Below are positions 35,966 to 53,904 of a stretch of DNA of 64,000 nucleotides, in pieces (positions within the stretch are counted from its first letter, which is position 1; every line of letters starts with the position of its first letter). Source of the DNA: Thermodesulfobium acidiphilum (GTDB lineage Bacteria > Thermodesulfobiota > Thermodesulfobiia > Thermodesulfobiales > Thermodesulfobiaceae); contig NZ_CP020921.1 of assembly GCF_003057965.1 (NCBI RefSeq), positions 1,414,916 to 1,478,915 on the forward strand. The letters run 5' to 3'. The notes beneath the pieces are model-generated. The model saw only the letters and a list, made by a program, of their open reading frames with translations. It did not search any database and was not told the DNA's origin. A program made the translations under genes and the position numbers.

Positions 35966-35987
35966 ATCTTAAAAGACTAATTAAAAA

Positions 35988-38645
35988 TTATTTATCAGCT
36001 TCATACTGCCTTTTTGCAAGAATAGTTGCTCTTGCAGCAGCCAATCTAGCCACTGGCACCCTAAAGGGAGAACAACTAACATAATTAAGACCTATTTCAT
36101 AGCAAAAAGCTATTGATTCAGGGTCTCCACCATGTTCACCACATATACCAATTTCCAGATCTTTGTTTACCTTTTTCCCTCTTTCGACAGCAATCTTCAT
36201 CAGCTCACCAACTCCATCTCTATCAAGCGTTTGAAATGGATTTACAGGCAGTATTCCCCTCTCTAAATACACTGGCAAAAATTTGCTTTCTGCGTCATCT
36301 CGGCTAAAGCCAAAAGTCATTTGAGTAAGATCGTTTGTGCCAAAAGAGAAAAATTTTGCATATTTTGCAATTTCATCAGCTCTTAGCGCTGCCCTTGGAA
36401 GTTCTATCATGGTACCAAATAAATATGGTATCTGAATGCCCTGTTCCAAAATAACTTCCTTTGCAACCTCTTCAAGTTTTTCTCTAACAAATCTTATTTC
36501 ATTTATATGGCCTACTAGTGGTACCATTATTTCAGGAAAAACCCGGTCACCCTCTTTCATTACTTTCGCTGCCGCTTCTAAAATAGCTCTAACCTGCATC
36601 TCATTTATTTCAGGATAAACAAGGCCTAACCTGCATCCCCTAAAACCCATCATTGGGTTAGATTCTTTAAGAGCTTCTGCCCTTCTAAGAAGTCTCTTCT
36701 TTTTCTCTGCAATGTCTTTTTCTCCATTTTTTTCATGTTGGGATATTTCTTCTTTCAAGATTTCCCTTTTTGGCAAAAATTCATGTAAAGGCGGGTCAAG
36801 AAGTCTAATTATTACAGGATACCCTTTCATTTCTTTAAATATCCCATAAAAATCTTCTCTTTGCATGGGAAGCAGCTTTTCAAGTGCAGCCTTTCTTTCT
36901 TCTATAGTCTCGGCTACTATCATTTCTTGCATAGCTGGAAGTCTATCCTGAGCCATAAACATATGTTCAGTTCTACAAAGGCCTATTCCCTTTGCCCCAA
37001 ATTCATAGCTTCTTTTCGCATCTTCTGGAGTATCAGCGTTGGCTCTAACTTGAATATTAGCTAATTTATCAGACAAAGACAACAAATTCTTGAGATCCTC
37101 ACTGAGCTCTGGCATAATAAGTGGAGCAACGCCTTTGAAAATATTTCCAGAAGTCCCATCTATTGTTATAACGTCAAATTCCTTTACAGTTTCACCATTT
37201 ACAGTAAATAATCTTTCTTTTAGATCTATTTTTATCGATTCAGCACCTACTACAGCAGGCTTTCCCATTCCTCTAGCTACCACAGCAGCATGACTTGTCA
37301 TTCCACCTCTTGCAGTAAGAACACCCTTTGCAGCAGCCAAACCGTGGATGTCATCTGGAACAGTCTCTGGTCTAACTAAAATTACGTCCTCATCACTCAT
37401 CTTAGCAGCAAGATCAGCATCAAAAACAACTTTCCCTGTAGCAGCACCCGGAGATGCACCTAACCCCTTTGCTATACTTTGAAGCTTGGAGGAGACATTA
37501 ATTCTTGGATGAAGTAAAAAGTCCACCTGGGACGGTTCAACTCTTAAAATTGCTTCTTCTTCGCTGATCAACCCTTCATTCAAAAAGTCCATAGCAAGTT
37601 TTACAGCTGCACCAGGCGTTCTTTTGCCCGTTCTAACTTGAAGCATATAAAGCTTTCCCTTTTCTATGGTAAACTCTATATCTTGCATATCTTTATAGTG
37701 TTCTTCTAAAATTTTGCAAAACTTCAAAAGCTCATCATAAACAGCTGGCATTTCCTTTTTCAACTCGATTATAGGCTTTGGGGTCCTTATACCGGCAACT
37801 ACATCTTCACCCTGTGCATTTACTAAATATTCACCAAAAATCCCCTTATCGCCTTTCTTTGGGTCTCTTGTAAATGCTACACCAGTAGCGCTATCATCGC
37901 CCATATTTCCAAAAACCATGGTTACAACGTTTACAGCTGTGCCAAGGTCATCCGGAATATTATTAATTCTTCTATAAGTAATTGCACGAGGAGCGTTCCA
38001 CGATCTGAATACGGCTTCTATGGCCATTCTCAATTGAATAAAAGGGTCCTGTGGAAATTCTTTATTAAACTTCTTATATATGTCAAAATATCTTTTTATA
38101 AGCTCCTTGAGGTCATCAGCACTTAGTTCTACATCATATTTAATGCCTTTTTTGGCCTTTAAACTTTCAAGTTCATTTTCAAAAGGCTGTAAGCCCATAT
38201 CCAATACAATATCGCCAAACATCTGAATAAGTCTTCTATAAGAATCATAGGCAAGTCTTGGATTAGAAGATTCCTTACTAAATAATTCTACCGTCTCATC
38301 GTTTAAGCCAATATTTAAAACGGTATCCATCATCCCTGGCATCGAAAACTTTGCACCTGACCTAACCGAAAAAAGAAGAGGTAACCCAGACTTTGCAGCA
38401 AACTTTTTCCCCGTTTTTTCTTCAACAATCCTGACATTTTCCAAAACCATTGGCCAAAGCTCTTCGATAACTTTTTCGCCCTTTTTCATATAGAGATTAC
38501 AAACTTCAGTTGTAATAGTAAACCCTGGGGGTACAGGCAAACCAATGTTTGTCATCTCTGCAAGACCAGCACCCTTACCGCCCAACAAGTCTCTCATGGA
38601 AGCGTTGCCTTCTTCAAATAAATATACCCATTTCCCCATGTTCAC
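35988..38645 (-). CDS. ppdK: Pyruvate, phosphate dikinase
   Basis: LLGGKGAGL, SVRSGA, GGMTSHAAVVARG and FSFGTNDLTQ. Confidence 0.97.
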   Translation of the reverse strand: MNMGKWVYLFEEGNASMRDLLGGKGAGLAEMTNIGLPVPPGFTITTEVCNLYMKKGEKVIEELWPMVLENVRIVEEKTGKKFAAKSGLPLLFSVRSGAKFSMPGMMDTVLNIGLNDETVELFSKESSNPRLAYDSYRRLIQMFGDIVLDMGLQPFENELESLKAKKGIKYDVELSADDLKELIKRYFDIYKKFNKEFPQDPFIQLRMAIEAVFRSWNAPRAITYRRINNIPDDLGTAVNVVTMVFGNMGDDSATGVAFTRDPKKGDKGIFGEYLVNAQGEDVVAGIRTPKPIIELKKEMPAVYDELLKFCKILEEHYKDMQDIEFTIEKGKLYMLQVRTGKRTPGAAVKLAMDFLNEGLISEEEAILRVEPSQVDFLLHPRINVSSKLQSIAKGLGASPGAATGKVVFDADLAAKMSDEDVILVRPETVPDDIHGLAAAKGVLTARGGMTSHAAVVARGMGKPAVVGAESIKIDLKERLFTVNGETVKEFDVITIDGTSGNIFKGVAPLIMPELSEDLKNLLSLSDKLANIQVRANADTPEDAKRSYEFGAKGIGLCRTEHMFMAQDRLPAMQEMIVAETIEERKAALEKLLPMQREDFYGIFKEMKGYPVIIRLLDPPLHEFLPKREILKEEISQHEKNGEKDIAEKKKRLLRRAEALKESNPMMGFRGCRLGLVYPEINEMQVRAILEAAAKVMKEGDRVFPEIMVPLVGHINEIRFVREKLEEVAKEVILEQGIQIPYLFGTMIELPRAALRADEIAKYAKFFSFGTNDLTQMTFGFSRDDAESKFLPVYLERGILPVNPFQTLDRDGVGELMKIAVERGKKVNKDLEIGICGEHGGDPESIAFCYEIGLNYVSCSPFRVPVARLAAARATILAKRQYEADK

Positions 38646-38727
38646 TCCTCCTAAAATAGATTTTAAACCCTTTTGTCCTCAGAATTACTAAACTAGATTT
38701 TAGCACAACAAACAAATATAAACTTTC

Positions 38728-39540
38728 TTAGGAAATTTTATTATTGCTCAAAATATTAAGTATTTCTGTCGCAGTTTCCTCTACTGCCTTGTTTGTTGCA
38801 TCAACAACTTTACAACCGATCCTCTTCATAATATTTTTAGCAAAAAGGAGCTCTTCCTCTACAAATCGTATATCCATATACGCCTTCATGCCGGTAATAC
38901 CCATTTTCTCCAATCTCTTTGCTCTTATAGCAGCTAAAGCATTTGGTTCTATAGTCAAACCGATTATTTTCTCCTTAGGCAGATCAAACAATATGCTAGG
39001 AGGTTCTATGCCTAATACCAAAGGAATATTTGCAACCTTGTATCCTTGATGTGCCATATACATTGAAAGTGGGGTCTTAGAAGTTCGAGATACACCAATT
39101 AATATTAAATCAGCTTTTAACAAATCGCCTAGATTTGCTCTCCCATCATCACATCTTACAGCAAACTCTATTGCCTCTACCCTGCTAAAATACATGGTAT
39201 CGAGTTTGTGTAAAATTCCAGGTTTTTCAATTGGGCTCTGTCTTGTAAACGTTTTTATTGCATCAATTGTTTGGCCTAAAACATCAACAGCCTTTATAGA
39301 TCTTTTCTCTACCTCATCCTTTAAAAGCGATCTAAGTTGACTGGTTACAATTGTGTAGAGTATCAACGTATCTTCTGGATTAATGTTTTCTAAAATTTCA
39401 ATAAGCTTTTTCTCATCAGTTACATAAGGAATTCTTTTAATTCGAAAATCAACGGCATTCTCAGGAAAAAGGCTTGTTGCAGCCACTGCTACTGCTTGTG
39501 CAGTGTGACCGGTTGAATCAGATAATATTAGAATATTCAC
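38728..39540 (-). CDS. PPDK regulatory kinase/pyrophosphorylase (DUF299)
   Basis: SDSTGHTA, DDG and GVSRTSKTPLSMY; adjacent to ppdK. Confidence 0.92.
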   Translation of the reverse strand: MNILILSDSTGHTAQAVAVAATSLFPENAVDFRIKRIPYVTDEKKLIEILENINPEDTLILYTIVTSQLRSLLKDEVEKRSIKAVDVLGQTIDAIKTFTRQSPIEKPGILHKLDTMYFSRVEAIEFAVRCDDGRANLGDLLKADLILIGVSRTSKTPLSMYMAHQGYKVANIPLVLGIEPPSILFDLPKEKIIGLTIEPNALAAIRAKRLEKMGITGMKAYMDIRFVEEELLFAKNIMKRIGCKVVDATNKAVEETATEILNILSNNKIS

Positions 39541-39564
39541 TTTGACTCCTTAAAAAGAAAGTTA

Positions 39565-41640
39565 TCACTGATTTCTTACTATCTTTTTCCAATTCCACAA
39601 TCTAAAAAACGGCAATGATATTAAGTTTAACAACGCTTTTCTGTTATCTCTAAGTTTCTTATCCTCCACATTAACAAGAACATTTTCAAAAAAAGTGTGA
39701 ATTGATCCAGAAAGATTAATGATTATGTTTAAAATCTCATCGTACTTTTTGTTTAGTATTGCATCTTCCAAATTATCTTTATTATTGATAAATTTTTCAT
39801 AAAGGTCCCTTTCATCTCTCTCAACTAACAAAGATGGATCAAATGCTACCAGTTCTTCTTTTTCCGAAATAATTCTTCCAAGTCGAATAATAGTGCTTAC
39901 AATATCAAAGAAATCTTTTCTCTTAGACCATTCAGTAAGAACGTCCAATCTTCTTTTAGCCTTTACAGGTGAAGACGTAATATCCAGAACAGCGTCAACC
40001 AAGTCGTATCTGTAACCCATATCAATAAACAAAGACGACATCCTGATTTTCATAAAGTTAATTAACTGACTAATGTCCCTTGAAGGGAGGGTAGTTATAT
40101 ATGAAATAGAATTCAGGGCAAAGTTAAATATTTCTTCAAGTTCGTTTTCATAACCATTATCCATCAATATTCTCAACACTCCAGCACTTGCTCTTCTTTG
40201 ACCATATGGATCCCCTGCACCTGACGGAGTCAAATTATTCAAAAAAGACATAAAAAGGTGATCGCATTTGTCAGAAAAGGAAAATAACTTACCTAATAAA
40301 GTAGTAGGAAGAGGGGATTTCATGTTTATTGGCAAATAATGCTCCTCTATTGCAAGTGCAATTTCAGGATCTATCCCTTCCTTTTCAGCATAAATTCTCC
40401 CCATTGTACCTTGTAATTCTGGAAATTCAAAAACCATCTGAGTAACAAGATCACACTTCAAAAGCGTCGATGAATTTTTTATCAACTCTTCATCAAGATT
40501 TATATTAAAAAACCTATTAAACGCAAGAGATAGTTCTCTAATTCTAAAAGTTTTGTCTAAATAGTTTCCTAACCCTTCCAGGTAAGAAACGCTAACGAGA
40601 TCGTCTAATCTGTCCCTTAACTTTTTCGTTAAATCCTTTTTCATGAAAAACATTGCATCTGAAAGCCTCGCTTTTAAAACCTTTTCGTTTCCGGCTCTAA
40701 CTATCTTTGTATCCTTATTTACACCATTTATTATTCCTACAAAATTGGGCATTATCTCGTTATTGTTATCTACTACAGCAAAATATCTTTGATGCCTTGC
40801 CATTACAGTTGTAAGAACTTCTCTAGGAAGATTTAAAAAATCAGGATTAAATGAACCCAAAAATGCCTTAGGACTTTCAACCAAAAACAATACCTCTTTT
40901 AAAAGATTCTGATCATAAACAATTTTTTTATCCTTATCCAAAACTTTTTTAATTTCAAGTTCTATAGTCTTTGCTCTTTCGTTCTGATCGATGATAATAT
41001 TTTTTTCTTTCATAATATTAAAGTAATCTTCAATCGATTTTACTTCATACTGCTCATTGGGAGTAAATCTCTCAAGATAAGTAAATTTATCTGATTCCAA
41101 TTTCCCAAGATGAACCTTAACATACCCTGAATCAGAAAGAGATAAGATCCATCTTATTGGTCTTACAAATCTAATTTTAGCTCCCCATCTCATACTCTTT
41201 GTCATTTTCAATTCTGAAATTACTCTGGGTAAAATATTGGGAATAATATCTGAAACCTTTAGGCCTTTATCTATTTTATAAAATACTACATATTCTCCAC
41301 CTTCACTCTTGTCAATCTTTACATTATCAATAGAAATATTAAATTTTTCAACAAATTTAAACAGCGCAGGCATAGGCTTCATGTTAGAGTCATAAGCAAA
41401 TCTTACAGGAGGTCCTTTTACTTTTTGTTTTGTTTCCGGAGTAAAATCAGGCAAATTAGAAAACAAAACAATTCTTCTAGGAGTAACATAACATTCTGTG
41501 TTTTGTCTTATCATTTCAAAATCCTTGCTACCAAATATCTCTGAAAATTTGTTTAAGAATATCTCTTTAAAGTCTTTACAAACGCTCGATGCAAAGTTAG
41601 ATGGCATCTCTTCACAACCTATTTCCAACAAGTACTTCAT
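39565..41640 (-). CDS. glyS: Glycine-tRNA ligase beta subunit
   Basis: LLEIGCEEMP, TPRR, FVRPIRW, EFPELQG and EHYLP. Confidence 0.95.
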   Translation of the reverse strand: MKYLLEIGCEEMPSNFASSVCKDFKEIFLNKFSEIFGSKDFEMIRQNTECYVTPRRIVLFSNLPDFTPETKQKVKGPPVRFAYDSNMKPMPALFKFVEKFNISIDNVKIDKSEGGEYVVFYKIDKGLKVSDIIPNILPRVISELKMTKSMRWGAKIRFVRPIRWILSLSDSGYVKVHLGKLESDKFTYLERFTPNEQYEVKSIEDYFNIMKEKNIIIDQNERAKTIELEIKKVLDKDKKIVYDQNLLKEVLFLVESPKAFLGSFNPDFLNLPREVLTTVMARHQRYFAVVDNNNEIMPNFVGIINGVNKDTKIVRAGNEKVLKARLSDAMFFMKKDLTKKLRDRLDDLVSVSYLEGLGNYLDKTFRIRELSLAFNRFFNINLDEELIKNSSTLLKCDLVTQMVFEFPELQGTMGRIYAEKEGIDPEIALAIEEHYLPINMKSPLPTTLLGKLFSFSDKCDHLFMSFLNNLTPSGAGDPYGQRRASAGVLRILMDNGYENELEEIFNFALNSISYITTLPSRDISQLINFMKIRMSSLFIDMGYRYDLVDAVLDITSSPVKAKRRLDVLTEWSKRKDFFDIVSTIIRLGRIISEKEELVAFDPSLLVERDERDLYEKFINNKDNLEDAILNKKYDEILNIIINLSGSIHTFFENVLVNVEDKKLRDNRKALLNLISLPFFRLWNWKKIVRNQ

Positions 41641-41703
41641 ACTTTTATCTACATTTCCTCTCTTTCTTTAAGATAATATGCTTTAAATTAAACATCTTTA
41701 CTT

Positions 41704-42585
41704 TTATTTTTTATTCTCTTTATTATTTTTCTCAGCAATTGCTACTCTTTTTGCAACTTCTTTTGCTAGATTTCTAACTCTTGATATATAATGAGTCCTT
41801 TCTAATACTCCAATCGCACCCCTTGCGTCCAAAAGGTTAAAGTTATGCGAACACTTAAGCACATAATCATAAGCAGGTCTTATCAAATCTAATTCTATTA
41901 ACCTTAAAGCTTCTTCCTCATAATCATCAAAGTGCCTTTTTAGCATCAGAATATCAGCTTCTTCAAAATTAAATTTTGACCATTCTACTTCACTATTAAA
42001 ATGAATATCGCGATAGGTTACTTTATCGTTAATTTTTATGTCAAAAACATTGTCTACATCCTGTAGATAAAGAGCTATCCTTTCTAACCCATAGGTTATT
42101 TCAAGAGAAATAGGGTCAAGATCTATTCCACCAGCCTGTTGAAAATAGGTAAACTGGGTTATTTCCATACCATCCAACCACACCTCCCAACCTATCCCCC
42201 AAGCGCCAAGAGTCGGAGATTCCCAATCATCTTCTACAAACCTAATATCGTGTTTTTTTACATCAAGGCCTAAAGCCTCAAGACTTCTTATGTATATATC
42301 CTGAGTAAACGTTGGGGCAGGCTTTAATATAACCTGAAACTGATAATAGTGTTGTAGTCTATTAGGATTTTCTCCATATCTACCATCAGTAGGCCTTCTA
42401 GAGGGCTCAACATAACAGGTATTCCAGCTATCTGGTCCCAAAACCCTTAGAAAAGTTGAAGGATTCATTGTTCCAGCCCCTTTTTCCACATCATACGGCT
42501 GAAGCAACACGCACCCATTCTTTGTCCAAAAATCTTGAAGTTTTAATATGATCTGTTGAAAATTTAATTTTTTGATTTCAAACAC
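41704..42585 (-). CDS. glyQ: Glycine-tRNA ligase alpha subunit
   Basis: [32 protein letters not shown] and EITYGLER. Confidence 0.97.
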
Positions 42586-44032
42586 CTCCTAAACGTTTTG
42601 GGGAAACCCATGTACTAGGTTTGTTATCAAACAAAACCCTTTTAAAAACAAAAAACATTATAAACATCCAGGTTAACATATAAAGGGAAAAAAATAGAGA
42701 AAGTAAGATTCTTTTCATAAAACCGATATTAAAATAATCTTTTAAAAAAAACATTGAAATTGGAAATAATAATGCTGGATAAGACAAGATGATAACTAAA
42801 AGTATTAAAATATCACCTTTTCCAAAGATTAATAATCCTATTTCTTCAAACATAGATAGTATAGCAAAAAAAGGTATTAAAAATTCTGAAATAAAAAAAA
42901 GAAAAAAATCAAGGTTAGATTTTGTTGATTCAAAAGAAATTTCCTTCAAACAATTATTACATCTATTTGAAATTGCTCTTCTTAGTATAAGTGCTGAATA
43001 TTTAATGTATCTTCTGAGCGAACCCTCAAGCCACCTAAACCTTTGCGTCCACCATGACAAGAGATCAAAAACAGTTTGTTCATAAACAAAGGGTTCTTCA
43101 AGAAATACTATCTTCTTCCTGTTAAAGAACAGCCTTGAAGACATTTCTAGGTCGTCTGTAATAGACTCTTCATCAAATCCATGAACCTCTTTTAACACCT
43201 CTCTGCTAATAACCATGCCTGATCCTCGAAGTTCAACAGCCCCTCCAAAGGCATTTCTAGATTTTTGCATAAAGGAATCCAAACACAATTCAAGATAAGA
43301 TAAGTAAGAAATAAGGTTATAGTTTGGGTTTGATGAAACCTTTCTTAATTGAATCGCATCTGGTTTAAATTTGTTTATAAAATTAGAAATTTTAACCAAA
43401 GCATCTCTGTCAATAAAATATGAATCTGCATCCAACATAACAACGTAATCGCCTGAACAAAGCTCTATCCCATCGTTTAAGCTAGCCGATTTACCCGGTT
43501 TAGAATCATGAGTTCTATGTAAAACTTTAATTTCCTTGTCAGAATCAAATTCCTTTTTATATGCTAAAACAAAATCATCTACTATTTTTCCTGTTTTATC
43601 TTCAGATCTGTCATCTACTATTATTATTTCAAAATTCCCATTCAACTCAATAATTTTTTTTAAGGTATTTTCTATAACGCTCTCCTCGTTGTGAGCACAT
43701 ATTAAAATGCTAAATTTATAAAAAAAGTCATTACTCTCAAGATCATTTTGCTTAGAATCGATTATATCATCCATACTCTTCAACTTCTTAATTAGAAAAA
43801 AAAGATAAATGAAAAATATTAAAATAAAAAAAACGTAAAGAGCCATTATAACCCTTCTAATATAAAACCATACAATAAAGTAAAGGAGGATAAATATCAA
43901 CGATAAAATTGATTTGTACTTTGTTAAATTAAAAAGTATAAAAGACATCACTTTTAATCTGAGTTCTTCTGATCTCTCCTGTTCAAAACATACAATATTT
44001 TTGTTCTCTATTTTCTTTTGATTAATTTTCAC
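42578..44032 (-). CDS. GT2 membrane glycosyltransferase, MgdA (monoglucosyl-DAG synthase)-like
   Basis: [41 protein letters not shown] and QRFRW; N- and C-terminal TMs. Confidence 0.8.
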
Positions 44033-44076
44033 ACCTTCTAAATAATTTGATAAAAAATATTTATTTATTCAAATAT

Positions 44077-45198
44077 TCAAACTTTGCTTTTCTCCAAAAA
44101 CTTCCTGAAATTTATTACATTATAGTAAACATCTTCCAAAATTTGTATCTGTCTAAATATATTAAAGTTACTTATAATTCTTTCTCTTGCTTTACTAGAA
44201 AACTTACTTCTTAGTTCTTCGTTTTGATAACTAATCTTTAAAGCATGAATTAATTCATCCTTTAATTTCATAGGGTTAAGCAGTATTCCAGAATCCTGAA
44301 GTGCATCCTGTGTAGCTCCTACATTTGTTGCTATACACATCAATTTGGAACTCATTGCCTCTAAAAGAGCTAGAGGAAGCCCCTCTATTGATGACGGCAA
44401 AACAAAGACATCACTAGACCTAAAAATTTCTTGTTTTCTATCCTGATTTGCTTCGCCAAAAAATATTATGTTTTCGCTATTAAAATCCCTCTTCAATTTT
44501 AAAAGATCAATTCCATCACCAACAATCAGTAGTTTAACTTTTTCAGGAAAGTTGTTCTCCAAAAAAGCCTCACATAAAACTTTTACATTCTTCTCAGGGC
44601 TTATCCTCCCTAAATAAAGAAAAAGAAAATCAGCATTCAACCTTTCTTTCAAATCAGAATAACCTGGGGAATATTTTATAGGATCTACTCCGTTTGGTAT
44701 TATTTGAAGTTTTTCTTTTTTTACTCCTTTTTCCATTAGAAAATCGCTTTGTACGGATGAAAGAGTAATAATTTTATCATAATTACTCAAAAAAGGAGCA
44801 TAAACGTTGTAAACAACTTGTGAAAAAACACCCCAAAGAGTTTTGTTTTTATCAAAAGGCGGATGGAATGTAGCAATTACTGGAATATCGTCGAATATAT
44901 CCGGGATAAAAAAATCTAAAAAGGAAAGGGTTAAAGATATATGAATACAATCGGGCTTCACAGACTTTACAATGTCTTTTAGTTTTCTTATTGTTGAAGG
45001 AGCTATCATAATATACGGCTGAGTTTTGAATAGATAAGGCAAAAAACTTCTATCTTTTTCATCCTCACCTTCATCAAAAAGTAATAGATGAACGCTGTGA
45101 CCTCTTTCGTCAAGTTTTTCTTTTATTTCCTGCACATAAACCGAATTGCCATCAATTGGAGAAAGTCTGCCAAGAATTAGTATTTTAAGTTTATTCAA
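44077..45198 (-). CDS. GT4 glycosyltransferase, cyanobacterial DgdA-like
   Basis: LPYLFKTQPY, HISLTLSFLDF, ATFHPPFD, IPNGVD, GRISPEKN and EGLPLALLEAM. Confidence 0.8.
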   Translation of the reverse strand: MNKLKILILGRLSPIDGNSVYVQEIKEKLDERGHSVHLLLFDEGEDEKDRSFLPYLFKTQPYIMIAPSTIRKLKDIVKSVKPDCIHISLTLSFLDFFIPDIFDDIPVIATFHPPFDKNKTLWGVFSQVVYNVYAPFLSNYDKIITLSSVQSDFLMEKGVKKEKLQIIPNGVDPIKYSPGYSDLKERLNADFLFLYLGRISPEKNVKVLCEAFLENNFPEKVKLLIVGDGIDLLKLKRDFNSENIIFFGEANQDRKQEIFRSSDVFVLPSSIEGLPLALLEAMSSKLMCIATNVGATQDALQDSGILLNPMKLKDELIHALKISYQNEELRSKFSSKARERIISNFNIFRQIQILEDVYYNVINFRKFLEKSKV

Positions 45199-46402
45199 TC
45201 CTATCAGCCTCCACTGCTACAGATTTTATAGAAAAATATAAAAGTGAAGTTAAAATTCCAAGAATTAAAAAACAAATTCTTACGCCAAACATATCAGCTA
45301 ATTCGCCTGCAAAAAGAATAGGAAATGTCGAAGTAAAGCTAATAAACATATTTAATATTGCAAAAACTCTTCCCCTAAAAGATTCCTTTACTACTTTTTG
45401 CATCATAGATTGAATTGGAATATTTACAAGTGCATTAGCAATACCTAACAAAAAAGAAATTATTGGTATAATAAGTATTTGAGTAATTGTGGACATCAAC
45501 ACCAAACATAGGCTGGCAAACAGTATTCCTATGCTTACAATGGTGGAATTTTTAAAAGTTGGAGTTTTAATATGACCAATTATTAAAGAACCCAAAACCA
45601 TTCCAAATCCTGCAGGAACAACAATTATAGAAAAATTAGCTTCACTAAGGTGAAGAACTTCTCTAACATAACCTACAGCTAAAACGCTTACCATTCCCAT
45701 CAAAGAAGTTGCAATAGATTGTTCAAGTATTAAAACCTGAATAAGCTTTGAAGACTTTATATAGGTAAAGGAGTCAAAAAGAGCCTTTCTAAAAGAGCAA
45801 TACTTTACTTCTGAATGTGGTCTGTCATTTGGTAAAATTGAAGAAACAATAGCAGCTGCCAAATAAGACATAGCTGTAAGCACCACAGCCACTTTTATAC
45901 CAAAAAATAACACAACTGGACTAATAGCAGCAAAACCAAGTATAAATGACATTACCCATGTAACGTTAAAGAGTGAGTTGGCAGCTGACAAATTTTTTTT
46001 CGATGCAGTTTTTGGTATCATTGCAAATTCTGCTGGAGCAAATATAACAATCAAAGAAGCTATTAAAAAGCTATAAAAATAAATTGCAAATAAATTTTCT
46101 AGAAAAAAAACTAATAAAATAGATAACAAACTTCTTAAAATGTTTATTGAAACCAGGATAAACTTTCTGTCTACCTTATCTAAAAAAACACCTATAAAAG
46201 GAGCTATCACCACAGATGGCAGGGCAAAGGACACCATAAGTGACGAAACGCTAATATTTGTATTGGTTATATTTGAAACTGCAATCATTAAAGCTGCCAT
46301 TAAAAATTTATCCGAAAACTGTGAAAAAATCTGCGCTATCCACAATCTTAAAAAGTATTTATCTTCAAAAAGCCAGACTCTATTCATAAAATTCCTTTTC
46401 AA
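45191..46402 (-). CDS. MFS transporter
   Basis: FLRLWIAQIFSQFSD, GVFLDKVDRK, FAPAE and RGRVFA; about 12 TM. Confidence 0.9.
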   Translation of the reverse strand: MKRNFMNRVWLFEDKYFLRLWIAQIFSQFSDKFLMAALMIAVSNITNTNISVSSLMVSFALPSVVIAPFIGVFLDKVDRKFILVSINILRSLLSILLVFFLENLFAIYFYSFLIASLIVIFAPAEFAMIPKTASKKNLSAANSLFNVTWVMSFILGFAAISPVVLFFGIKVAVVLTAMSYLAAAIVSSILPNDRPHSEVKYCSFRKALFDSFTYIKSSKLIQVLILEQSIATSLMGMVSVLAVGYVREVLHLSEANFSIIVVPAGFGMVLGSLIIGHIKTPTFKNSTIVSIGILFASLCLVLMSTITQILIIPIISFLLGIANALVNIPIQSMMQKVVKESFRGRVFAILNMFISFTSTFPILFAGELADMFGVRICFLILGILTSLLYFSIKSVAVEADRIE

Positions 46403-46916
46403 TTAACTTTATCGATTTTGGCAAATAGCCTAGAATTTCAATCATTTGCTTCTTCAAAGCCTTAAAATCACTAATATCTTTTTCATAGTGCAATTCATCT
46501 ACAAAACCAGCATAATAAAATTCTTCCTTCAAGGATTTTACAAACCAATCAAGGTCTTTAAATTGCGTTTCGTTCTCAAAAAAAATGTTCGCATACACTC
46601 TTTTAACAGACTCAAAAGCACCCCTTGCAATCTTATCTATAATATCCAAATACGAAGAGAGTAAAATTGATTGCCTAAAGGAGCCTATGTTAGGCGATCT
46701 TATTATACTATATTCATTTAATATCATAATCTCTCCCTTTGTTTTAACAAGTTCAACATCCATAAATGTGCCTGGAAAAATTAATTTTCTAAATATAGCC
46801 TTCTTACTACCCTTCAGGAGAGCTGGTAAAGAACCAAAACTATCAGTTAAAATTTTAACAATAAAACTATTCTCTTTAATAGGATAAGATCTTAAAAAAA
46901 TCCCCTGTTCTATCAT
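46380..46916 (-). CDS. recO: DNA repair protein RecO (short, divergent)
   Basis: EQGIFLRSYPIKENSFIVKILTDSFG OB-fold N-terminus; conserved position after cdd. Confidence 0.7.
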   Translation of the reverse strand: MIEQGIFLRSYPIKENSFIVKILTDSFGSLPALLKGSKKAIFRKLIFPGTFMDVELVKTKGEIMILNEYSIIRSPNIGSFRQSILLSSYLDIIDKIARGAFESVKRVYANIFFENETQFKDLDWFVKSLKEEFYYAGFVDELHYEKDISDFKALKKQMIEILGYLPKSIKLIEKEFYE

Positions 46917-47359
46917 TTATGCAAGCTAAATGGGTGTCTTAAAAGATCCGAAAAAGGTATAACCCTTATTTCTTTACTAGAAATTAGAATGATTGGAAAA
47001 TTACTATCCACAAATTCAGACATAACCTGAAGGCAACATCCACATGGATATGGCAAAATATCTTTATTATATACTGCAAGACATAAAAAACTTCGCTCTC
47101 CAGAAGAAAGAGCTTTAAAAAAAGCTACTCTCTCTGCGCAAACAGTAGACCCATAAGAAGAGTTCTCTATATTACAACCCTGAACTATGCTTTTATTTTC
47201 CAACAACAAACCAGCTCCAACCGCAAACCTTGAGTAGGGTGAATAAGAATACATTGAAGCATTTTTAGCTTCATTTATAAGTGTTTCTATTAAATCTTTA
47301 TAAATTTTATTTTTAGAACCTAAAAGCAAATTTACTTCCTTCTCTATATCCAAAATCAC
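46913..47359 (-). CDS. cdd: Cytidine deaminase
   Basis: YSPYSRFAVGA, GCNIEN, CAER and PCGCCLQ. Confidence 0.93.
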   Translation of the reverse strand: MILDIEKEVNLLLGSKNKIYKDLIETLINEAKNASMYSYSPYSRFAVGAGLLLENKSIVQGCNIENSSYGSTVCAERVAFFKALSSGERSFLCLAVYNKDILPYPCGCCLQVMSEFVDSNFPIILISSKEIRVIPFSDLLRHPFSLHK

Positions 47360-47436
47360 TGCACTCCAAATAAAATTTAAGAATAACCAGACCTCTACTT
47401 ATTGACTTAAAAAAGCTTTAAAGAAAAAGCTTTAAA

Positions 47437-49062
47437 TTATAATTTATCAGATATTGCAACTTTCATAAAATCAAAAAACAATGGATGAGGCTTGTTAGGT
47501 CTCGACTTAAATTCTGGGTGAAATTGGGTTCCCAAATACCATTTGTGACCTCTTAACTCTACAATTTCTACTAGATTTTTTTCCTCAAATATGCCGCTAG
47601 CAATCATACCGTGTTCTTCAAAATCTTTTTTAAATAAATTATTGAATTCATATCTATGCCTGTGCCTTTCGAAAACCAAATCCTGGTTGTATGCGCGCTT
47701 TGCAAGAGTATTATCCACCAGTTTACATGGAAATGCCCCGAGCCTCATCGTAGCCCCCTTATCAACTATCCTCTTCTGTTCTTCCATCAAATCAATCACA
47801 GGAAATTTTGTATTTTCATCAAATTCTGTGCTATTTGCACCTTTTAATCCAAGTACATTTCTCGCAAATTCAATACACATAATCTGCATACCCAAACATA
47901 ATCCAAAATACGGAATGTTGTTTTCACGAGCAAATCTTGCTGTCAATATTTTGCCCTCAATACCTCTAACCCCAAAACCACCAGGAACCACAATGCCCTT
48001 TACTCCTTCAAGCATTTTTCTAGCATCATCCATAGAGTTGATATTTTCTGTATTTATCCATCTAATTTTTAATTCGTATCCTAAATGTAAACTGCTGTGT
48101 CTCAAAGATTCCACTACGCTAATATAAGAATCAGGCAATCCAACGTATTTACCTGCAATAGCAATTTCAACCATATCCTTTAAATTCTTAGCCATTTCAA
48201 TTATTCTAATCCAACTATCTAATTGAGGTTCTACATATGGTTCAATCTTTAGTTTATTTGCTACTAGTTTGCTTAATTTGTTGGACTCAAGCATAATTGG
48301 CGCCTCATAAATTACATGTCTTACGTCTTCTAGTGGGATTACTGCTTCGGGATCTACATCACAGAATAGAGATATTTTCTCCCTTATGGAATTATTAATA
48401 GATTTCTCTGATCTAAGTATTATTATATCGGGTTGAATTCCAATACTCCTTAATTCTTTGACGCTGTGTTGAGTGGGTTTTGTTTTTAGTTCTCTTGCAG
48501 CTTTTAAATAAGGAACGAGTGTTAGATGGATATAAAGAGTATTATCCCTGCCAACATCCTTTTTAAATTGTCTGATTGCCTCTAAAAATGGCTCACCCTC
48601 TATATCTCCTACTGTACCTCCAACCTCACAAATTAAAACACCTCCATCGATAAGCCTGGCAGCTTCTCTGATCTTCGACTTTATTTCATTTATTACGTGC
48701 GGCACAACCTGAACAGTACCGCCCAGAAAGTCTCCGCGCCTTTCCTTTAAAAGTATTTCCTGATAAACCATACCAGAAGTTAAATTCGATGACTTTGTAA
48801 GATTTGTATTTATAAATCTTTCATAGTGTCCCAGATCAAGGTCAGTCTCAGCTCCATCATCAGTTACAAATACCTCACCGTGTTGATAAGGGTTCATTGT
48901 ACCTGGATCTACGTTTAAATATGGATCAAGTTTAATAACATTTACCCTTAAACCCATAGACTTCAATATTCTTCCCAAAGAAGCAACCACTATACCCTTA
49001 CCCAGAGATGAGGTAACCCCACCAGTGACGAAAACAAATTTTGTGTTATTGTCTAACTTCAT
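47437..49062 (-). CDS. pyrG: CTP synthase
   Basis: GGVTSSLGKG, KTKPTQHSV, GLCLGMQ and QFHPE. Confidence 0.97.
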   Translation of the reverse strand: MKLDNNTKFVFVTGGVTSSLGKGIVVASLGRILKSMGLRVNVIKLDPYLNVDPGTMNPYQHGEVFVTDDGAETDLDLGHYERFINTNLTKSSNLTSGMVYQEILLKERRGDFLGGTVQVVPHVINEIKSKIREAARLIDGGVLICEVGGTVGDIEGEPFLEAIRQFKKDVGRDNTLYIHLTLVPYLKAARELKTKPTQHSVKELRSIGIQPDIIILRSEKSINNSIREKISLFCDVDPEAVIPLEDVRHVIYEAPIMLESNKLSKLVANKLKIEPYVEPQLDSWIRIIEMAKNLKDMVEIAIAGKYVGLPDSYISVVESLRHSSLHLGYELKIRWINTENINSMDDARKMLEGVKGIVVPGGFGVRGIEGKILTARFARENNIPYFGLCLGMQIMCIEFARNVLGLKGANSTEFDENTKFPVIDLMEEQKRIVDKGATMRLGAFPCKLVDNTLAKRAYNQDLVFERHRHRYEFNNLFKKDFEEHGMIASGIFEEKNLVEIVELRGHKWYLGTQFHPEFKSRPNKPHPLFFDFMKVAISDKL

Positions 49063-50350
49063 CTACATCTCCTTTCTCTTTGGTAACCAATACTTCCTTT
49101 ATTCTTCTGCCATCTACTTTCAAAATTTTAAATTCGATGCCTTTAAATATTATTTTCTCGCCTTCCTTTGGTATCTTTCCAAAGAGGGCGAACAATAGGC
49201 CAGCAAGCGTTTCTTCATTGTAACCATCAATAAAATCTTCAAAATCAAAGTCAACTTTAGCCGCAAACTCTCTAAGACTCAGTCTTCCATTCGCAATAAA
49301 GCTATTTTCGTTAAAATCTTTCACGAGCGCTTCCTCATCAAAATCATATTCGTCTCTTATTTCTCCTACTATTTCTTCAACCAGATCTTCTACCGTCAAA
49401 AGTCCTGCTGTACCTCCAAATTCATCCACTACAATAGCCATATACAATCTCTTGGCTTGAAGTTCTCTAAATAGTTCGCTAATATTTTTCCCCTCTGGAA
49501 CAAAGTAGGCTTCTCTAAGGGATGAATCAATAGTTTTAGAATAATCGGTAGATGGACCTAGATTCATAAGAATATCTTTTACATATAAAATGCCTACAAT
49601 ATTATCTATGTCTTTATCATAAACAGGATATCTTGAATGTCCCTCGTTCCTTATAATTTCCAAAGTATCGCTTAAAGTAGTCCCCTTTTTTATACACACC
49701 ATATCAATTCTTGGAACCATAATTTCTCTTACCACTTTATCCTTAAATTCAAAAACCCCACTTATCATTTCTTTTTCTTCCTTTTCTATAACTCCCTCTT
49801 CTTCACTTACGTTTACGAGATATCTCAGTTCACTTTCTGTAATTGACGGTAATCCTTTAATGTTCTTTATACCAAACGGAAATAAGAAAGTCTTTGATAA
49901 AGAAGTAAATAAGAAAACAAAGGGTCTACTTATATAAGTCATAAAATAAAGTGAAGATATAAAAACAAAAAATAATTTATCAGCAAAATAATAGCCAATA
50001 GTTTTTGGAACAATTTCGCCAATTACAATAATAAAAAGTGAAGAAATAATCACAGATAAAGAGGCGGCAACTGCTATAGAACCAATGTTGTTTAAAGAAA
50101 ATAACTCTATCATAAAAGACGTTACCAAAGTAGAAAGAGCAATATTAACAAAACTGCTCAATAACAAAAGAGTTGTTATTACCTCTTGAGGATGTGTCAA
50201 AAGAAAACCTGCTTTTTCATGCCCAGACTCTTTGTCATTGATCCATTGCATAATTTTTATTCTACTAGCCTTAGTAAAAACAGTTTCATTACACGACAAA
50301 AAAGCTGAGCATATAATTAAAAACAAAGTTAAAAGAAGATAAGTTATCAT
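49046..50350 (-). CDS. CNNM/CorC (hemolysin-family) CBS-domain protein
   Basis: GEIVPK, EIMVPR, HSRYPV and VDEFGGTAGLLTVEDLVEEIVGEI. Confidence 0.92.
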   Translation of the reverse strand: MITYLLLTLFLIICSAFLSCNETVFTKASRIKIMQWINDKESGHEKAGFLLTHPQEVITTLLLLSSFVNIALSTLVTSFMIELFSLNNIGSIAVAASLSVIISSLFIIVIGEIVPKTIGYYFADKLFFVFISSLYFMTYISRPFVFLFTSLSKTFLFPFGIKNIKGLPSITESELRYLVNVSEEEGVIEKEEKEMISGVFEFKDKVVREIMVPRIDMVCIKKGTTLSDTLEIIRNEGHSRYPVYDKDIDNIVGILYVKDILMNLGPSTDYSKTIDSSLREAYFVPEGKNISELFRELQAKRLYMAIVVDEFGGTAGLLTVEDLVEEIVGEIRDEYDFDEEALVKDFNENSFIANGRLSLREFAAKVDFDFEDFIDGYNEETLAGLLFALFGKIPKEGEKIIFKGIEFKILKVDGRRIKEVLVTKEKGDVDEVRQ

Positions 50351-50763
50351 GTTAGTTTAAAATCCTTAAAATGATTATTAAAACAACTATTTAACCCAAA
50401 AATATATGGGGCAAAACGATTTAAAATTAGAATCAAAAAAATGATTATAGAAAAAAGACATGCGATAAGAACAAATGAGGCAGACATATCCTTTATCGTT
50501 TTAATCCTGTCATCAAATTCAGGATTTATATAATCCATTATTCTTTCTATGACTGAATTAATCATCTCAGAAACGATAACAATAGAGGACGATAACAAAA
50601 CAATAGTCCATTCAAATGGTTCAAACCTTAATATAAATCCGATGGTTAATAACAAAAAAAATATACCTAACTGAATTTTTAAGTTTCTCTCTTCCTTAAG
50701 AGCTACTAAAAGACCCATTATTGCAAAATAAAAACTTTTATAAATATTGTGAGACCTTTTCAA
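50347..50763 (-). CDS. dgkA: Prokaryotic diacylglycerol/undecaprenol kinase
   Basis: EERNLKI, EMINSVIE and IKDMSA. Confidence 0.88.
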   Translation of the reverse strand: MKRSHNIYKSFYFAIMGLLVALKEERNLKIQLGIFFLLLTIGFILRFEPFEWTIVLLSSSIVIVSEMINSVIERIMDYINPEFDDRIKTIKDMSASFVLIACLFSIIIFLILILNRFAPYIFGLNSCFNNHFKDFKLT

Positions 50764-51187
50764 GACAATCTTTCTCCTTGGATCTCATTTCTTTTTCGCT
50801 AACATCGTTGTCGTGATCAAATCCTAAATTATGTAGGATCCCATGAACAATGAGCCACAACAAATAACTTTCAAAATTTTTTTTGGCAACTTCAGGAATT
50901 ATGTCGCCATAAGAACAGGACAAGAAATCCTCCTTTGCCCTTTCTACAGAAATTACTATATCTCCTAAAACACCTAAATTTATATCTCCTTCAAACGAAA
51001 GAACATCTGTGGGACAATCATTTTTACGAAACTCTTTGTTCAAAGTTCTAATTTCGTCATTGTCCGTAAGTAATAAACTAAGTTCACATTCCCCTACGCC
51101 AAGAAAATTCATAGATTCTTTAATAGCCTTTTTTAATTGTATATAATTCAATTTATACCTTTTCCTTTTAGATAATACTAAACTCAT
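50738..51187 (-). CDS. ybeY: rRNA maturation RNase YbeY
   Basis: PTDVLSF, GDIVIS and HGILHNLGFDH. Confidence 0.93.
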   Translation of the reverse strand: MSLVLSKRKRYKLNYIQLKKAIKESMNFLGVGECELSLLLTDNDEIRTLNKEFRKNDCPTDVLSFEGDINLGVLGDIVISVERAKEDFLSCSYGDIIPEVAKKNFESYLLWLIVHGILHNLGFDHDNDVSEKEMRSKEKDCLEKVSQYL

Positions 51188-51288
51188 AAAAGAATTGCAA
51201 ACCCTAAAATTATATTAAAATTAAAGTACAACATACTATTTTTTAGCGTACAAAACCTCCAACATTCTAAGATTATTTTCTATTAAGA

Positions 51289-53337
51289 TTATTGAGATTT
51301 GCCAGTAAGATTTGCCAGGTCTGGATACTCAATTCTTTGATGAAAAGACCCTACGAACAACCTTATAAAAACTTCTTTTATTTTAAGAAGCTCTTGAAGA
51401 GTAATTGGCGATTCGCTTAGTTGGCCATCTTCAAGTTTATTTTTAAAAATTCTATCAACTAAACTGTCTATTTTTGGTGAAACTGATCCAGATGATGCCC
51501 TTACAGCAGCCTCAACTGCATCTGCCAGCATTACTATAGCAGCTTCTTTAGTTTGAGGGAGAGGCCCAGGATATCTGAAATCTTTCTCTTCGACTTCAGA
51601 AAAACCAGATTGTAAAGCCTTATGATAAAAAAATACAATTAAGCTTGTGCCATGATGTTGAGAAATTATATCCAATATCTTGTCTGGAATACCATATGAC
51701 TTAGCAATTTCTACACCATCTTTTACATGGGAAGTCAAAATAGTAGCAGATAGCCAAGGAGATATTTCCGAATGTAAATTTACACCATTCTTTTGATTTT
51801 CTACAAAGAATTGAGGTCTTTTAAGTTTTCCTACATCATGATAATAAGATGCAACCCTAGCAAGCAAAGGATCTGCGTTAATTTCTTCAGCTGCCGTTTC
51901 AGCAAGATTTGCTACTATTATACTGTGGTGATAGGTCCCGGGAGCCTCCATTTGTAACCTTTTTAATAAGGGATGACTGGGATTTGATAAGTCCATTAGT
52001 TTCAATGGACTAAGAACTCCAACAGTGCTCTCGATATAAGGAAGTGCGCCCATTGCAGCAATCGATGATAGAAATCCGTTTGCAATAGCAAAAGCGAACT
52101 GGCTAAGAGAGTCGAGTACGTTTATACCGCTCCAGATATCCCAAAGTAGAACTGCCAAAAAAAACGTTAATGAAAACAAAAAAGCCGTATCAGACAAATC
52201 CCCTCTTCTTTGTATTCCTTTGCCCAAAAAGGCACCTGCAAAAGCACTAACTACTGCTATATAAAAACCAAGCAAACTAAAATTGCCAAAAAAGAAGACT
52301 AAAATTGCCAGAATAACCGAATAAAGAAGAGATATAGCAGGTGTGAAAATCAAAGATAAAAGTAAAGAAATACTGGCAAGAGGGACAATGATTGGTGAAA
52401 TAGGGAACAAAACAAAAACAAAAAGTATATAAACTGAAGAAAGAGCGCCAAGAACTATCAAGTGTCCTCTATCAAGAGTTATTTTCGGTGAAAAACTGTA
52501 AACAATAAATCTAAAAGCAAATAACATTAGTGCTGAGAAGAAAAATAGACTGACAAAATTTCTAACTCCAGAAAGGTTGTCCATAATTCCCAGTTCTTTT
52601 AACAAATAAGCTTTTTCTGGAGTCAAAATCTCTCCACTTCTAACCAATATTTGCCCTTTTTTGACATCAATTACAACTGGGGTAATTCCTTCAATTGCTT
52701 TTTGTTTAAGCTCATTGGTTAGTTTGTTATCTATGGTTGCATTTATCCTGAAATAACCTAAAATTAAATTCATAAATGCTTGAGAAGTATCTGGATCTAG
52801 CTTCAAAGAACTTATAATATTCGCAACCCGATTGGACAGTACGTCTAGTCTTTCTTCTTTTTGCAAAAGTGCAAAAATCTTGTTAGTATCAGCTTCTAAT
52901 TCTTTTGGATTTGATGAGATTAGAGCCTCTATGTCTCTCTCAGTTAAAAATGGTGCAATATCTTTAAGCTTTGCAACTCTTTGAGATTCAGAAAGATTTT
53001 TTGTAGATTCTAAATTTGAAAGGAAGTAATTAATAGAATCGTGAATAGAACCAAATTTATCATATGTTACAACCAAGACATCGGGTACAGCTCTTTCCCT
53101 TTGAATTTTTAAGTCCTCTGTAGCAACTTTATTTACAATTTGAGCGTCTTTAGGGGAAATCACATCGAAAGGGACCATTTTCCCAACAGCCAAAGTTGGA
53201 TAGACTCCTCTTAAATTATAAAGAAGAGCTGCTAACAAAAAAGCAATTAATAAATAGCTAAAGAGTTCTTCTCCTTTAAAACGCGACCAAAAAGGCTTTA
53301 GCTGCCCCAAAAGAGAGCCAAAGCGGTTAAAGTTCAT
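51289..53337 (-). CDS. 7TM-HD phosphohydrolase (PgpH-like c-di-AMP phosphodiesterase)
   Basis: Extracellular domain, 7 TM, APGTYHHS, YYHDVGK, QHHGT and LADAVEAA. Confidence 0.88.
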   Translation of the reverse strand: MNFNRFGSLLGQLKPFWSRFKGEELFSYLLIAFLLAALLYNLRGVYPTLAVGKMVPFDVISPKDAQIVNKVATEDLKIQRERAVPDVLVVTYDKFGSIHDSINYFLSNLESTKNLSESQRVAKLKDIAPFLTERDIEALISSNPKELEADTNKIFALLQKEERLDVLSNRVANIISSLKLDPDTSQAFMNLILGYFRINATIDNKLTNELKQKAIEGITPVVIDVKKGQILVRSGEILTPEKAYLLKELGIMDNLSGVRNFVSLFFFSALMLFAFRFIVYSFSPKITLDRGHLIVLGALSSVYILFVFVLFPISPIIVPLASISLLLSLIFTPAISLLYSVILAILVFFFGNFSLLGFYIAVVSAFAGAFLGKGIQRRGDLSDTAFLFSLTFFLAVLLWDIWSGINVLDSLSQFAFAIANGFLSSIAAMGALPYIESTVGVLSPLKLMDLSNPSHPLLKRLQMEAPGTYHHSIIVANLAETAAEEINADPLLARVASYYHDVGKLKRPQFFVENQKNGVNLHSEISPWLSATILTSHVKDGVEIAKSYGIPDKILDIISQHHGTSLIVFFYHKALQSGFSEVEEKDFRYPGPLPQTKEAAIVMLADAVEAAVRASSGSVSPKIDSLVDRIFKNKLEDGQLSESPITLQELLKIKEVFIRLFVGSFHQRIEYPDLANLTGKSQ

Positions 53338-53347
53338 TTTAATTTAA

Positions 53348-53527
53348 TTATCTTTTTTTTCTCTTTTTTGCTGCCTCAGCCCTCTTTTTCTTTTTCTTTA
53401 CGCTAGGACTTTCGTAGAATTCTCTCTTTCTAACCTCAGAAAGAATTCCTTCCTGTTGTACCACCTTGTTAAAACGTTTCAGAGCACTGTCTATTGATTC
53501 ATCTTTGTTAATACGAATTTCTGGCAA
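53348..53527 (-). CDS. rpsU: 30S ribosomal protein S21
   Basis: Manual translation from [71 protein letters not shown]. Below the track's size cut-off. Confidence 0.95.
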
Positions 53528-53550
53528 AGTTTAACAACCTCCTCAAATTA

Positions 53551-53886
53551 TCATCCCGGTGGCCAATCCATAGGCCTACCGCCTATCACATGAAAATGAA
53601 GATGAAATACGGTCTGACCTCCATCATCTCCAACATTTGTCACCACTCTGTATCCCTTCGTCAGCCCTTCTTTTTGAGCAACCAGATTACAAACATACAA
53701 TAAATGAGAGACCAGATTGAAATCTTCAACATCTCCTAAACTCCTTATATGCTTCTTTGGTATTACAAGAACATGAAAAGGAGCTACCGGATTGATATCC
53801 TTAAAAGCTAAAGAAATATCATCCTCATATATTATCTGAGAATCAAGCTTTTTTTCTGCTATAAGACAAAATACACAGTTTTCCAG
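53551..53886 (-). CDS. HIT-family nucleotide-binding protein (probable CTG start)
   Basis: CVFC, FKDINPVAPFH and HLHFHVIGG; AGGAGG-6nt-CTG at 53886. Confidence 0.9.
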   Translation of the reverse strand: MENCVFCLIAEKKLDSQIIYEDDISLAFKDINPVAPFHVLVIPKKHIRSLGDVEDFNLVSHLLYVCNLVAQKEGLTKGYRVVTNVGDDGGQTVFHLHFHVIGGRPMDWPPG

Positions 53887-53904
53887 ATAAATCCTCCTAA
53901 ATAA

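Follow-up and report, generated by a model that had tools for sequence, protein, structure and literature searches.

We analysed a stretch of 64,000 nucleotides from Thermodesulfobium acidiphilum (contig NZ_CP020921.1, positions 1,414,916 to 1,478,915 of the forward strand), which we call the window; all coordinates below are window positions. Between recO and glyQ the window carries a transporter gene and two glycosyltransferase genes, all on the minus strand. A short recO (46380-46916, 178 amino acids; Pfam RecO_N, 1.5e-10) comes first. It is followed by a transporter of the MFS (major facilitator superfamily; 45191-46402, 403 amino acids, about 12 transmembrane helices; Pfam MFS_1 5.5e-39, MFS_3 1.3e-15), a glycosyltransferase of family GT4 (44077-45198, 373 amino acids, no transmembrane helix; Glycos_transf_1 9.5e-28, Glyco_transf_4 2.8e-21), a membrane glycosyltransferase of family GT2 (42578-44032, 484 amino acids; Pfam Glyco_tranf_2_3 5.5e-28) and glyQ (41704-42585; Pfam tRNA-synt_2e 4.8e-144, NCBIfam glyQ models above cut-off). 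The span from the GT2 stop to the recO start is thus 42578-46916. We propose that the MFS, GT4 and GT2 genes probably form a three-gene glycolipid module within the recO-glyQS gene run, which would make and translocate mono- and dihexosyl-diacylglycerol.

The genes are tightly packed. From cdd, the gene upstream of recO, to glyQ, neighbouring genes overlap by 4 to 23 nucleotides (cdd/recO by 4, recO/MFS by 23, MFS/GT4 and GT2/glyQ by 8 each), and the sole gap is the 44 nucleotides between GT4 and GT2. With the sixth codon as the start of the MFS, which is where its Atlas record begins, recO and MFS are 6 nucleotides apart. Gaps through glyS (39565-41640, minus strand), the downstream neighbour of glyQ, do not exceed 63 nucleotides. 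The initial annotation had described an overlapping or closely spaced recO-MFS-GT4-GT2-glyQ run, and the list of open reading frames (ORFs), the spacing and the Pfam matches all agree with that description. In Firmicutes, recO is usually directly followed by glyQ. By NCBI taxonomy the phylum of our host is Thermodesulfobiota, so it is not a Firmicute. The genus Thermodesulfobium is thermophilic and sulfate-reducing (PMC7565709), and both glycosyltransferases have close counterparts in Thermodesulfobium narugense DSM 14796 (90% identity for GT4, 82% for GT2).

The GT4 and cyanobacterial DgdA

The GT4 consists of Glyco_transf_4 (PF13439, residues 17-173) and Glycos_transf_1 (PF00534, residues 190-340). 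DgdA (Slr1508/KtrE, CAZy family GT4), the digalactosyldiacylglycerol (DGDG) synthase of cyanobacteria, has the same architecture, and cyanobacterial copies carry the same pair of domains. We searched 5.8 billion proteins with the GT4. Four Thermodesulfobium-type sequences, 80-100% identical to the window GT4, lead the result. After the own genus, each of the 116 listed matches is 38-42% identical over 94-99% of the query, and every organism name among them is cyanobacterial.

A scan of GTDB genomes gives the same picture. Its best 80 loci (L001-L080), which include no Thermodesulfobium locus, are all cyanobacterial by title, except L069, which we assign by near-identity to L061. They range over Nostocales, Gloeobacterales, marine Synechococcus and Prochlorothrix. 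In all 80 the DgdA-type gene aligns with the window GT4 over its full length at 37-42% identity, and 115 of the 116 listed protein matches share 67% identity or more with the gene at these loci. Cyanobacterial matches score 260-282 bits; the best single-piece match among plasmids (7.3 Gb of PLSDB) reaches 106 bits at 26% identity. Searching these plasmids with the three module proteins turned up no chromosome-borne cyanobacterial copy, and we use the plasmid matches as controls of similarity and as outgroups only.

When the window GT4 is aligned with eight cyanobacterial and three Thermodesulfobium-type sequences, 98 columns are invariant. They include an EX7E pair (E272-x7-E280), the residues G197 R198 / E202 K203 N204, and the motifs LPYLFKTQPY, HISLTLSFLDF and ATFHPPFD. 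The initial annotation had quoted these three motifs as DgdA-like, and all are present in the ORF translation.

That the cyanobacterial group is dgdA can be read from a Snowella locus (L045, 10010-13221). Here the DgdA-type gene is directly followed by TrkH (381 bits, above the NCBIfam cut-off of 331) and then by TrkA. Two papers identify slr1508 as DgdA and as KtrE, and slr1509 as KtrB. Because the GT4-TrkH order in Snowella matches the slr1508/slr1509 pairing, the cyanobacterial GT4 group is dgdA. The claim that the window GT4 is DgdA-like therefore stands: the 116 listed matches all fall into one cyanobacterial orthologue group, which the Snowella adjacency and the literature name. Among the matches listed, DgdA is also the nearest family of the window GT4.

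However, the GT4 does not belong to the crown cyanobacterial DgdA clade. In an unrooted tree the four Thermodesulfobium sequences are split from 44 cyanobacterial ones by a long branch with 100/100 support and are nested in no cyanobacterial order. Rooting on five plasmid GT4 proteins gives (Thermodesulfobium,(P0189,(Gloeobacterales, other cyanobacteria))) with supports of 95/85 and 97/97. The outgroup branches in this tree are saturated, hence the root is provisional. The window GT4 branches apart from every one of the 23-44 cyanobacterial sequences sampled, Gloeobacterales among them. Copies from Gloeobacterales and marine Synechococcus share 54-63% identity with those of other cyanobacteria, in contrast to 37-42% for the window GT4. 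Since the GT4 branches outside and is 37-42% identical to cyanobacterial copies, compared with at least 54% within cyanobacteria, we interpret it as a deep-branching sister lineage to crown DgdA and place it outside that clade.

The protein P0189 (cluster members P0500 and P0501; IMG/ENA contigs of up to 155 kb) forms a third lineage among the DgdA-type GT4 proteins. Its identity is 41% with the window GT4 and 38-46% with cyanobacterial copies, and in the rooted tree its branch falls between those of Thermodesulfobium and the cyanobacteria.

A position outside the crown clade could go along with a different specificity. Hence the module may make glycolipids by another chemistry: the GT4 could be SqdX-like (sulfoquinovosyl), glucuronosyl-transferring or of the GlcNAc-PG type, or the GT2 could act on a lipid other than diacylglycerol, such as a hopanoid, a carotenoid or a ceramide. 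SqdX/SQD2, also a GT4, is described as a close relative and paralogue of DgdA with the same dual glycosyltransferase domain (PMC4742570). Below the NCBIfam cut-offs, the models that the GT4 touches include GlcN-PG synthase and alpha-MGlcDAG synthase. Yet these alternative curated models, like those touched by the GT2 (HpnB and CruG), are all far below cut-off. In a comparison of context that involved no SqdX sequence, neither the 116 listed matches nor the 80 best loci include an SqdX-type gene or an SqdX context; all of these are in dgdA context, and the window contains no sqdB-like gene. We regard this alternative as unlikely. Among PDB sequences nothing is close to the GT4 (the best are of BshA/PimA type, at most 63 bits).

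Gene order and the linked transporter

The DgdA-type genes of cyanobacteria share their upstream neighbours with the window GT4. In 73 of the 80 cyanobacterial loci the GT4 is immediately preceded by a same-strand homologue of the window MFS, no more than 1 kb away. The order deoC-recO-MFS-GT4 is found in 61 of them (for example L018:6298-11146 and L048:7107-11170) and recO-MFS-GT4 in six more. In total, 67 of 80 loci have recO-MFS-dgdA in the order and strand seen in the window. A Pfam check on 13 diverse loci bore the order out in eight. Six loci have MFS-GT4 only: four of these are ended by the end of the contig, and two (L066 and L077) have 10 kb and 2.4 kb of upstream sequence with no recO match in it. 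Both upstream genes are missing from the remaining seven loci. For three of them (L033, L070 and L071) the upstream DNA is too short to tell, and four are truly without an upstream MFS: L045, which is the Snowella locus, and L039, L049 and L051 from Crocosphaera, Xenococcus and 'SU3'. The published operon prediction SYNW0663-0667 of Synechococcus WH8102, where KtrE is SYNW0663, is consistent with the cyanobacterial order.

The initial annotation had suggested a recO-MFS-dgdA adjacency in cyanobacteria, and it turns out to be real and widespread. In the literature that we searched, which excludes most subscription journals (this holds for all literature searches below), no paper came up that connects dgdA with an MFS.

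The window MFS itself is related to these dgdA-linked transporters. In tblastn comparisons it scores up to 152 bits against them (median 128 over 73 loci, some of them truncated by contig ends), with 24-32% identity over 70 long alignments. The best plasmid match in the same 7.3 Gb does not exceed 81 bits, and MFS proteins on cyanobacterial plasmids reach 57-63 bits. In a tree with six plasmid MFS, the window MFS joins 19 dgdA-linked MFS with 98/94 support, on long branches. On the count of 73 loci out of 80 and this tree, we reject a chance adjacency of the MFS. We consider the window MFS a candidate orthologue of the MFS upstream of dgdA. In cyanobacteria the MFS ORF often has 450-630 amino acids, with a possible N-terminal extension of about 130 amino acids.

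On NCBIfam all matches of the window MFS remain below cut-off (TIGR00900 152 bits, Aas-type MFS 83, LplT 66, LtaA 18), and the pattern of matches resembles that of a cyanobacterial dgdA-linked copy. LplT and Aas-type MFS are the best functionally named models over the full length of the window MFS (66 and 83 bits) as well as for the cyanobacterial copy (62 and 104 bits). The window MFS is nevertheless far below the respective cut-offs of 297 and 1221 bits, and it has no adjacent acyltransferase partner.

A second known system offers a parallel in gene arrangement. In Staphylococcus aureus the diglucosyl-diacylglycerol synthase YpfP/UgtP and the MFS flippase LtaA are encoded in one operon, so that here, too, a synthase gene adjoins an MFS gene. 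LtaA is the glycolipid flippase of Staphylococcus. The predicted fold of the window MFS (AlphaFold2 model, pLDDT 84.5) matches the LtaA structure 6s7v at rank 14 with a TM-score of 0.75. The curated scores for LplT and LtaA are not reached (66.3 bits versus 297, and 17.8 versus 450). Unlike the window enzymes (GT2 and GT4), YpfP belongs to GT28. We saw no lipoteichoic acid synthase gene in the window.

The recO gene behaves differently from its neighbours. In the window it encodes 178 amino acids versus 273-351 in the cyanobacterial copies, it has no Pfam RecO_C match, and it scores 34.6 bits on the NCBIfam reco model (cut-off 48.7). The MFS ORF begins within the end of recO or just past it, which leaves no room for the C-terminal domain. 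Similarity to cyanobacterial RecO is weak, limited to the N-terminus and at most 35 bits. Nothing in these comparisons suggests that recO travelled along in a transfer.

The membrane GT2

While in the window the GT4 is followed by the GT2 in the same operon, no GT2 occurs within 10 kb of dgdA in the 80 cyanobacterial loci; two weak matches (45-50 bits) lie elsewhere in them.

The catalytic core of the GT2 spans residues 107-336 (Pfam). By Kyte-Doolittle hydropathy, a hydrophobic block at residues 31-87 leaves room for two transmembrane helices before the core, and blocks at 373-404, 395-431 and 441-468 suggest three after it. This layout, a hydropathy estimate rather than the output of a dedicated predictor, matches the one reported for Sll1377 (MgdA), in which the GT2 domain is flanked by two N-terminal and three C-terminal helices (PMC3916417). 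MgdA is the cyanobacterial monoglucosyl-diacylglycerol synthase.

Names and motifs point the same way. Orthologues with 70-71% identity and many more distant relatives carry the automatic IMG name 1,2-diacylglycerol 3-beta-glucosyltransferase. In the Atlas, the clusters that look most like the GT2 bear the name 'Beta-monoglucosyldiacylglycerol synthase' (score 0.99). An alignment with 15 relatives has 49 invariant columns, among them DDRSxD, DAD, ELRGxG, TDDL and QRxRWxEG. The GT2 motifs that the initial annotation quoted as MgdA-like are all found in the ORF translation. The window GT2 differs from the family labelled mgdA by IMG and KEGG in a 12-residue insert after QRxRWxEG and in a longer N-terminus.

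An exhaustive search of representative sequences returned 56 clusters at E of 1e-30 or less, none of which exceeds 36% identity once the genus is set aside. Those relatives that carry organism names belong to Gastranaerophilales, Vampirovibrio and other Melainabacteria, which are non-photosynthetic and not oxygenic cyanobacteria. According to a 2026 preprint, an mgdA orthologue group occurs in more than 95% of Gastranaerophilales. None of our protein, representative, profile and plasmid searches returned an MgdA from a named oxygenic cyanobacterial isolate. Two proteins, P0404 and P0421, come from metagenome-assembled genomes that NCBI names Coleofasciculaceae and Oculatellaceae cyanobacterium, and these bins or labels may not be oxygenic. 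P0404 is 79% identical to a protein of Vampirovibrio chlorellavorus, so we did not count the two as bona fide MgdA.

Could the GT2 be a polymerase instead? The locus would then be an envelope poly- or oligosaccharide module, with the GT2 as a processive enzyme similar to PgaC or cellulose synthase, the GT4 decorating or priming the chain and the MFS exporting a soluble product. TED-like and QxxRW motifs are typical of processive GT2 enzymes, and the window GT2 has both. Its best curated match is PgaC_IcaA, at 95.6 bits and nearly end to end (residues 61-480 on profile positions 10-406 of 407), but this is far under the cut-off of 422. In the PDB, nothing is close to the GT2, and the best matches include BcsA, at 33 bits. 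The tree speaks against a polymerase: the GT2 and 32 family members lie on one side of a branch with 99/98 support that separates them from three outgroups of the PgaC/IcaA/Bcs type. PgaC-type proteins on plasmids reach at most 96 bits and 27% identity, versus 187-216 bits for the mgdA-labelled family. The window does contain lipopolysaccharide-type genes, a GT9 (54193-55191) and a Wzy_C gene (55181-56329), yet the operon itself holds no PgaB/D, BcsB or Wzx/Wzy partner, and the nearest family of the GT4 is a lipid glycosyltransferase with conserved synteny. We think a polysaccharide module quite unlikely.

For the alternative lipid chemistries considered above, the GT2 adds one observation. 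Its relatives carry the Pfam GT21 domain, which is similar to ceramide glucosyltransferase.

The claim that the GT2 is MgdA-like thus holds in part. Automatic names, shared motifs, topology and the split from PgaC/IcaA support it, whereas the GT2 lies on a long basal branch and its named relatives are melainabacterial. We treat the GT2 as a candidate beta-hexosyl-diacylglycerol synthase of the MgdA-type family. Overall, the initial interpretation appears largely right, most strongly for the GT4 and the synteny and less so for the GT2.

Proposed pathway, its age and its surroundings

By family assignment, the window holds a putative DgdA/MgdA-type pathway joined in one operon with a conserved MFS partner, in a non-photosynthetic phylum. 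Substrates, sugars, anomeric linkages, the MFS cargo and which step comes first are inferred as follows. On the cytoplasmic side of the membrane, the polytopic GT2 would use a UDP-sugar to attach a hexose to diacylglycerol and so yield beta-monohexosyl-diacylglycerol, as MgdA does. The GT4, a soluble or peripheral retaining enzyme of the GT-B fold and DgdA type, would add a second hexose to give dihexosyl-diacylglycerol. The MFS, which is akin to the lipid-handling LplT/Aas-type branch, may then carry this glycolipid, or a lyso version of it, through or out of the diderm cell's cytoplasmic membrane.

A number of observations weigh against this pathway. The first concerns the sugar. Cyanobacterial DgdA depends on a galactolipid made by the epimerase MgdE. 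The initial annotation saw no MgdE in the window, and a Pfam scan of the 52 window ORFs agrees: none has a hydroxylase/Rossmann fusion or an epimerase domain. As no MgdE-like ORF is present in the window, a glucose-based acceptor is possible, and since cyanobacterial DgdA needs the MgdE product, the Thermodesulfobium GT4 may differ in specificity. In the literature searched we found no lipid analysis of Thermodesulfobium, and no description of the lipids of the Melainabacteria/Vampirovibrionia to which the named relatives of the GT2 belong.

The second group concerns the families. The GT2 branches at the unresolved base of its family, where the stem that leads to it is about 2 substitutions per site long, and it is only 26-36% identical to any relative outside the genus. 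The names of these relatives are automatic. The GT4 trees contain no SqdX, described as a close relative of DgdA (PMC4742570). Outgroups are saturated in the GT4 and MFS trees, so that long-branch attraction could place Thermodesulfobium artificially deep. The kinship of the MFS was established within the 80 loci and the plasmids, not by a sequence search of a whole database. Besides LtaA, its fold (Foldseek) also resembles drug and amine transporters, and its Atlas neighbours are generic MFS of Bacillota and Chloroflexota. Both searches returned generic MFS only and gave no substrate signal, and PDB sequences contain nothing meaningful for it. Finally, no curated NCBIfam model reaches its cut-off for the GT2 or the MFS, or names them, and for the GT4 all matches are far below cut-off and none names it. 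The cyanobacterial DgdA-type proteins and P0400, the V. chlorellavorus relative of the GT2, reach no NCBIfam cut-off either. Because even the cyanobacterial DgdA-type proteins reach none, NCBIfam holds no DgdA or MgdA model.

The remaining alternative concerns the origin only: the genes may have been gained recently from a crown cyanobacterium or a melainabacterium of a shared hot-spring habitat and have landed beside recO by chance. The nearest relatives of the GT4 and the MFS are indeed cyanobacterial and those of the GT2 melainabacterial, and NCBI taxonomy sets Thermodesulfobiota far from Cyanobacteriota. However, the GT4 falls into no cyanobacterial subgroup and is more distant from all of them, at 37-42%, than Gloeobacterales is, at 54-63%. 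It is common to the four Thermodesulfobium-type sequences. The three module genes have a GC content of 0.286-0.316, which matches the flanks (0.30-0.36; window 0.335). A chance landing beside recO in the cyanobacterial order is unlikely, and recO itself is not cyanobacterium-like. Hence a recent gain seems very unlikely to us, and on the GT4 trees, the identities and the GC content we reject transfer from crown cyanobacteria as the leading origin. We rank all three alternatives, namely the polysaccharide module, another lipid chemistry and the recent gain, below the glycolipid module.

Judged from the sequences, the module dates far back and is no late acquisition from crown cyanobacteria, because the GT4 lies outside all sampled oxygenic cyanobacteria including Gloeobacterales and the genes have the local base composition. 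One can go further and suppose that recO, MFS and dgdA already formed a linked module before crown oxygenic cyanobacteria arose, that the MFS is the missing DGDG translocator, and that Thermodesulfobium retains a fuller form with the first-step GT2 in the operon. The 'thylakoid' pathway would then have begun as an envelope-lipid system of non-photosynthetic diderm anaerobes and have been recruited to photosynthetic membranes later. We offer this extension tentatively and would not be surprised if it were wrong.

The locus bears on several published questions. DgdA is treated as an enzyme of cyanobacteria (and of Cyanidiales plastids) whose origin is uncertain and may lie in an SqdX-like gene, and the origin of MgdA is called difficult to find (PMC4742570, PMC6946739). 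One account states that no in vitro assay of DgdA exists (PMC3916417). The host of our GT4 is a non-photosynthetic anaerobe without thylakoids. Its deep-branching DgdA-type gene, coming from a cultured thermophile, would be a natural outgroup to root DgdA, and more generally a non-photosynthetic outgroup for studying the origin of thylakoid sugar lipids. A compact operon with both enzymes could be expressed and assayed. The module also gives a functional hypothesis for the uncharacterised MFS that precedes dgdA in 73 of the 80 cyanobacterial loci. We found no paper that ties Thermodesulfobium to such glycolipids.

The module is part of a longer, unbroken run of minus-strand genes: a PgpH-like 7TM-HD gene, ybeY, dgkA, a CNNM/CorC gene, pyrG, cdd, recO, MFS, GT4, GT2, glyQ and glyS. 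Past glyS the run continues with a PPDK regulator and PPDK. The cytidine deaminase gene cdd (46913-47359, minus strand; NCBIfam TIGR01354, 122.3 bits, cut-off 113.65) is the immediate upstream neighbour of recO; in this upstream part of the run (46913-53337, minus strand) there is no era between cdd and recO. The dgkA gene, of the prokaryotic diacylglycerol kinase family, shares the run with a module that would use diacylglycerol. Scans of 35500-54000 found 69 promoter-like sites (66.4 +/- 8.3 in shuffled sequences) and 14 terminator-like sites (9.3 +/- 3.4 in shuffles), which do not inform the operon boundaries.

Farther away, some window genes point to a diderm envelope. At 18891-20237 (plus strand) lies the gene of a protein with an SLH domain and porin-like regions, and the GT9 and Wzy_C genes mentioned above encode a heptosyltransferase and a protein similar to O-antigen ligase. 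All three fit a diderm envelope. An outer membrane anchored by SLH domains is a trait also of cyanobacteria. At the other end of the window, 2153-11219 (plus strand) is likely a restriction or defence island. It encodes a PLD-SNF2 helicase (1031 amino acids), an Eco57I/TaqI-type methylase (1109 amino acids), an AAA_15 ATPase in two ORFs (8582-9103 and 9149-10030) and a DUF3644 protein.

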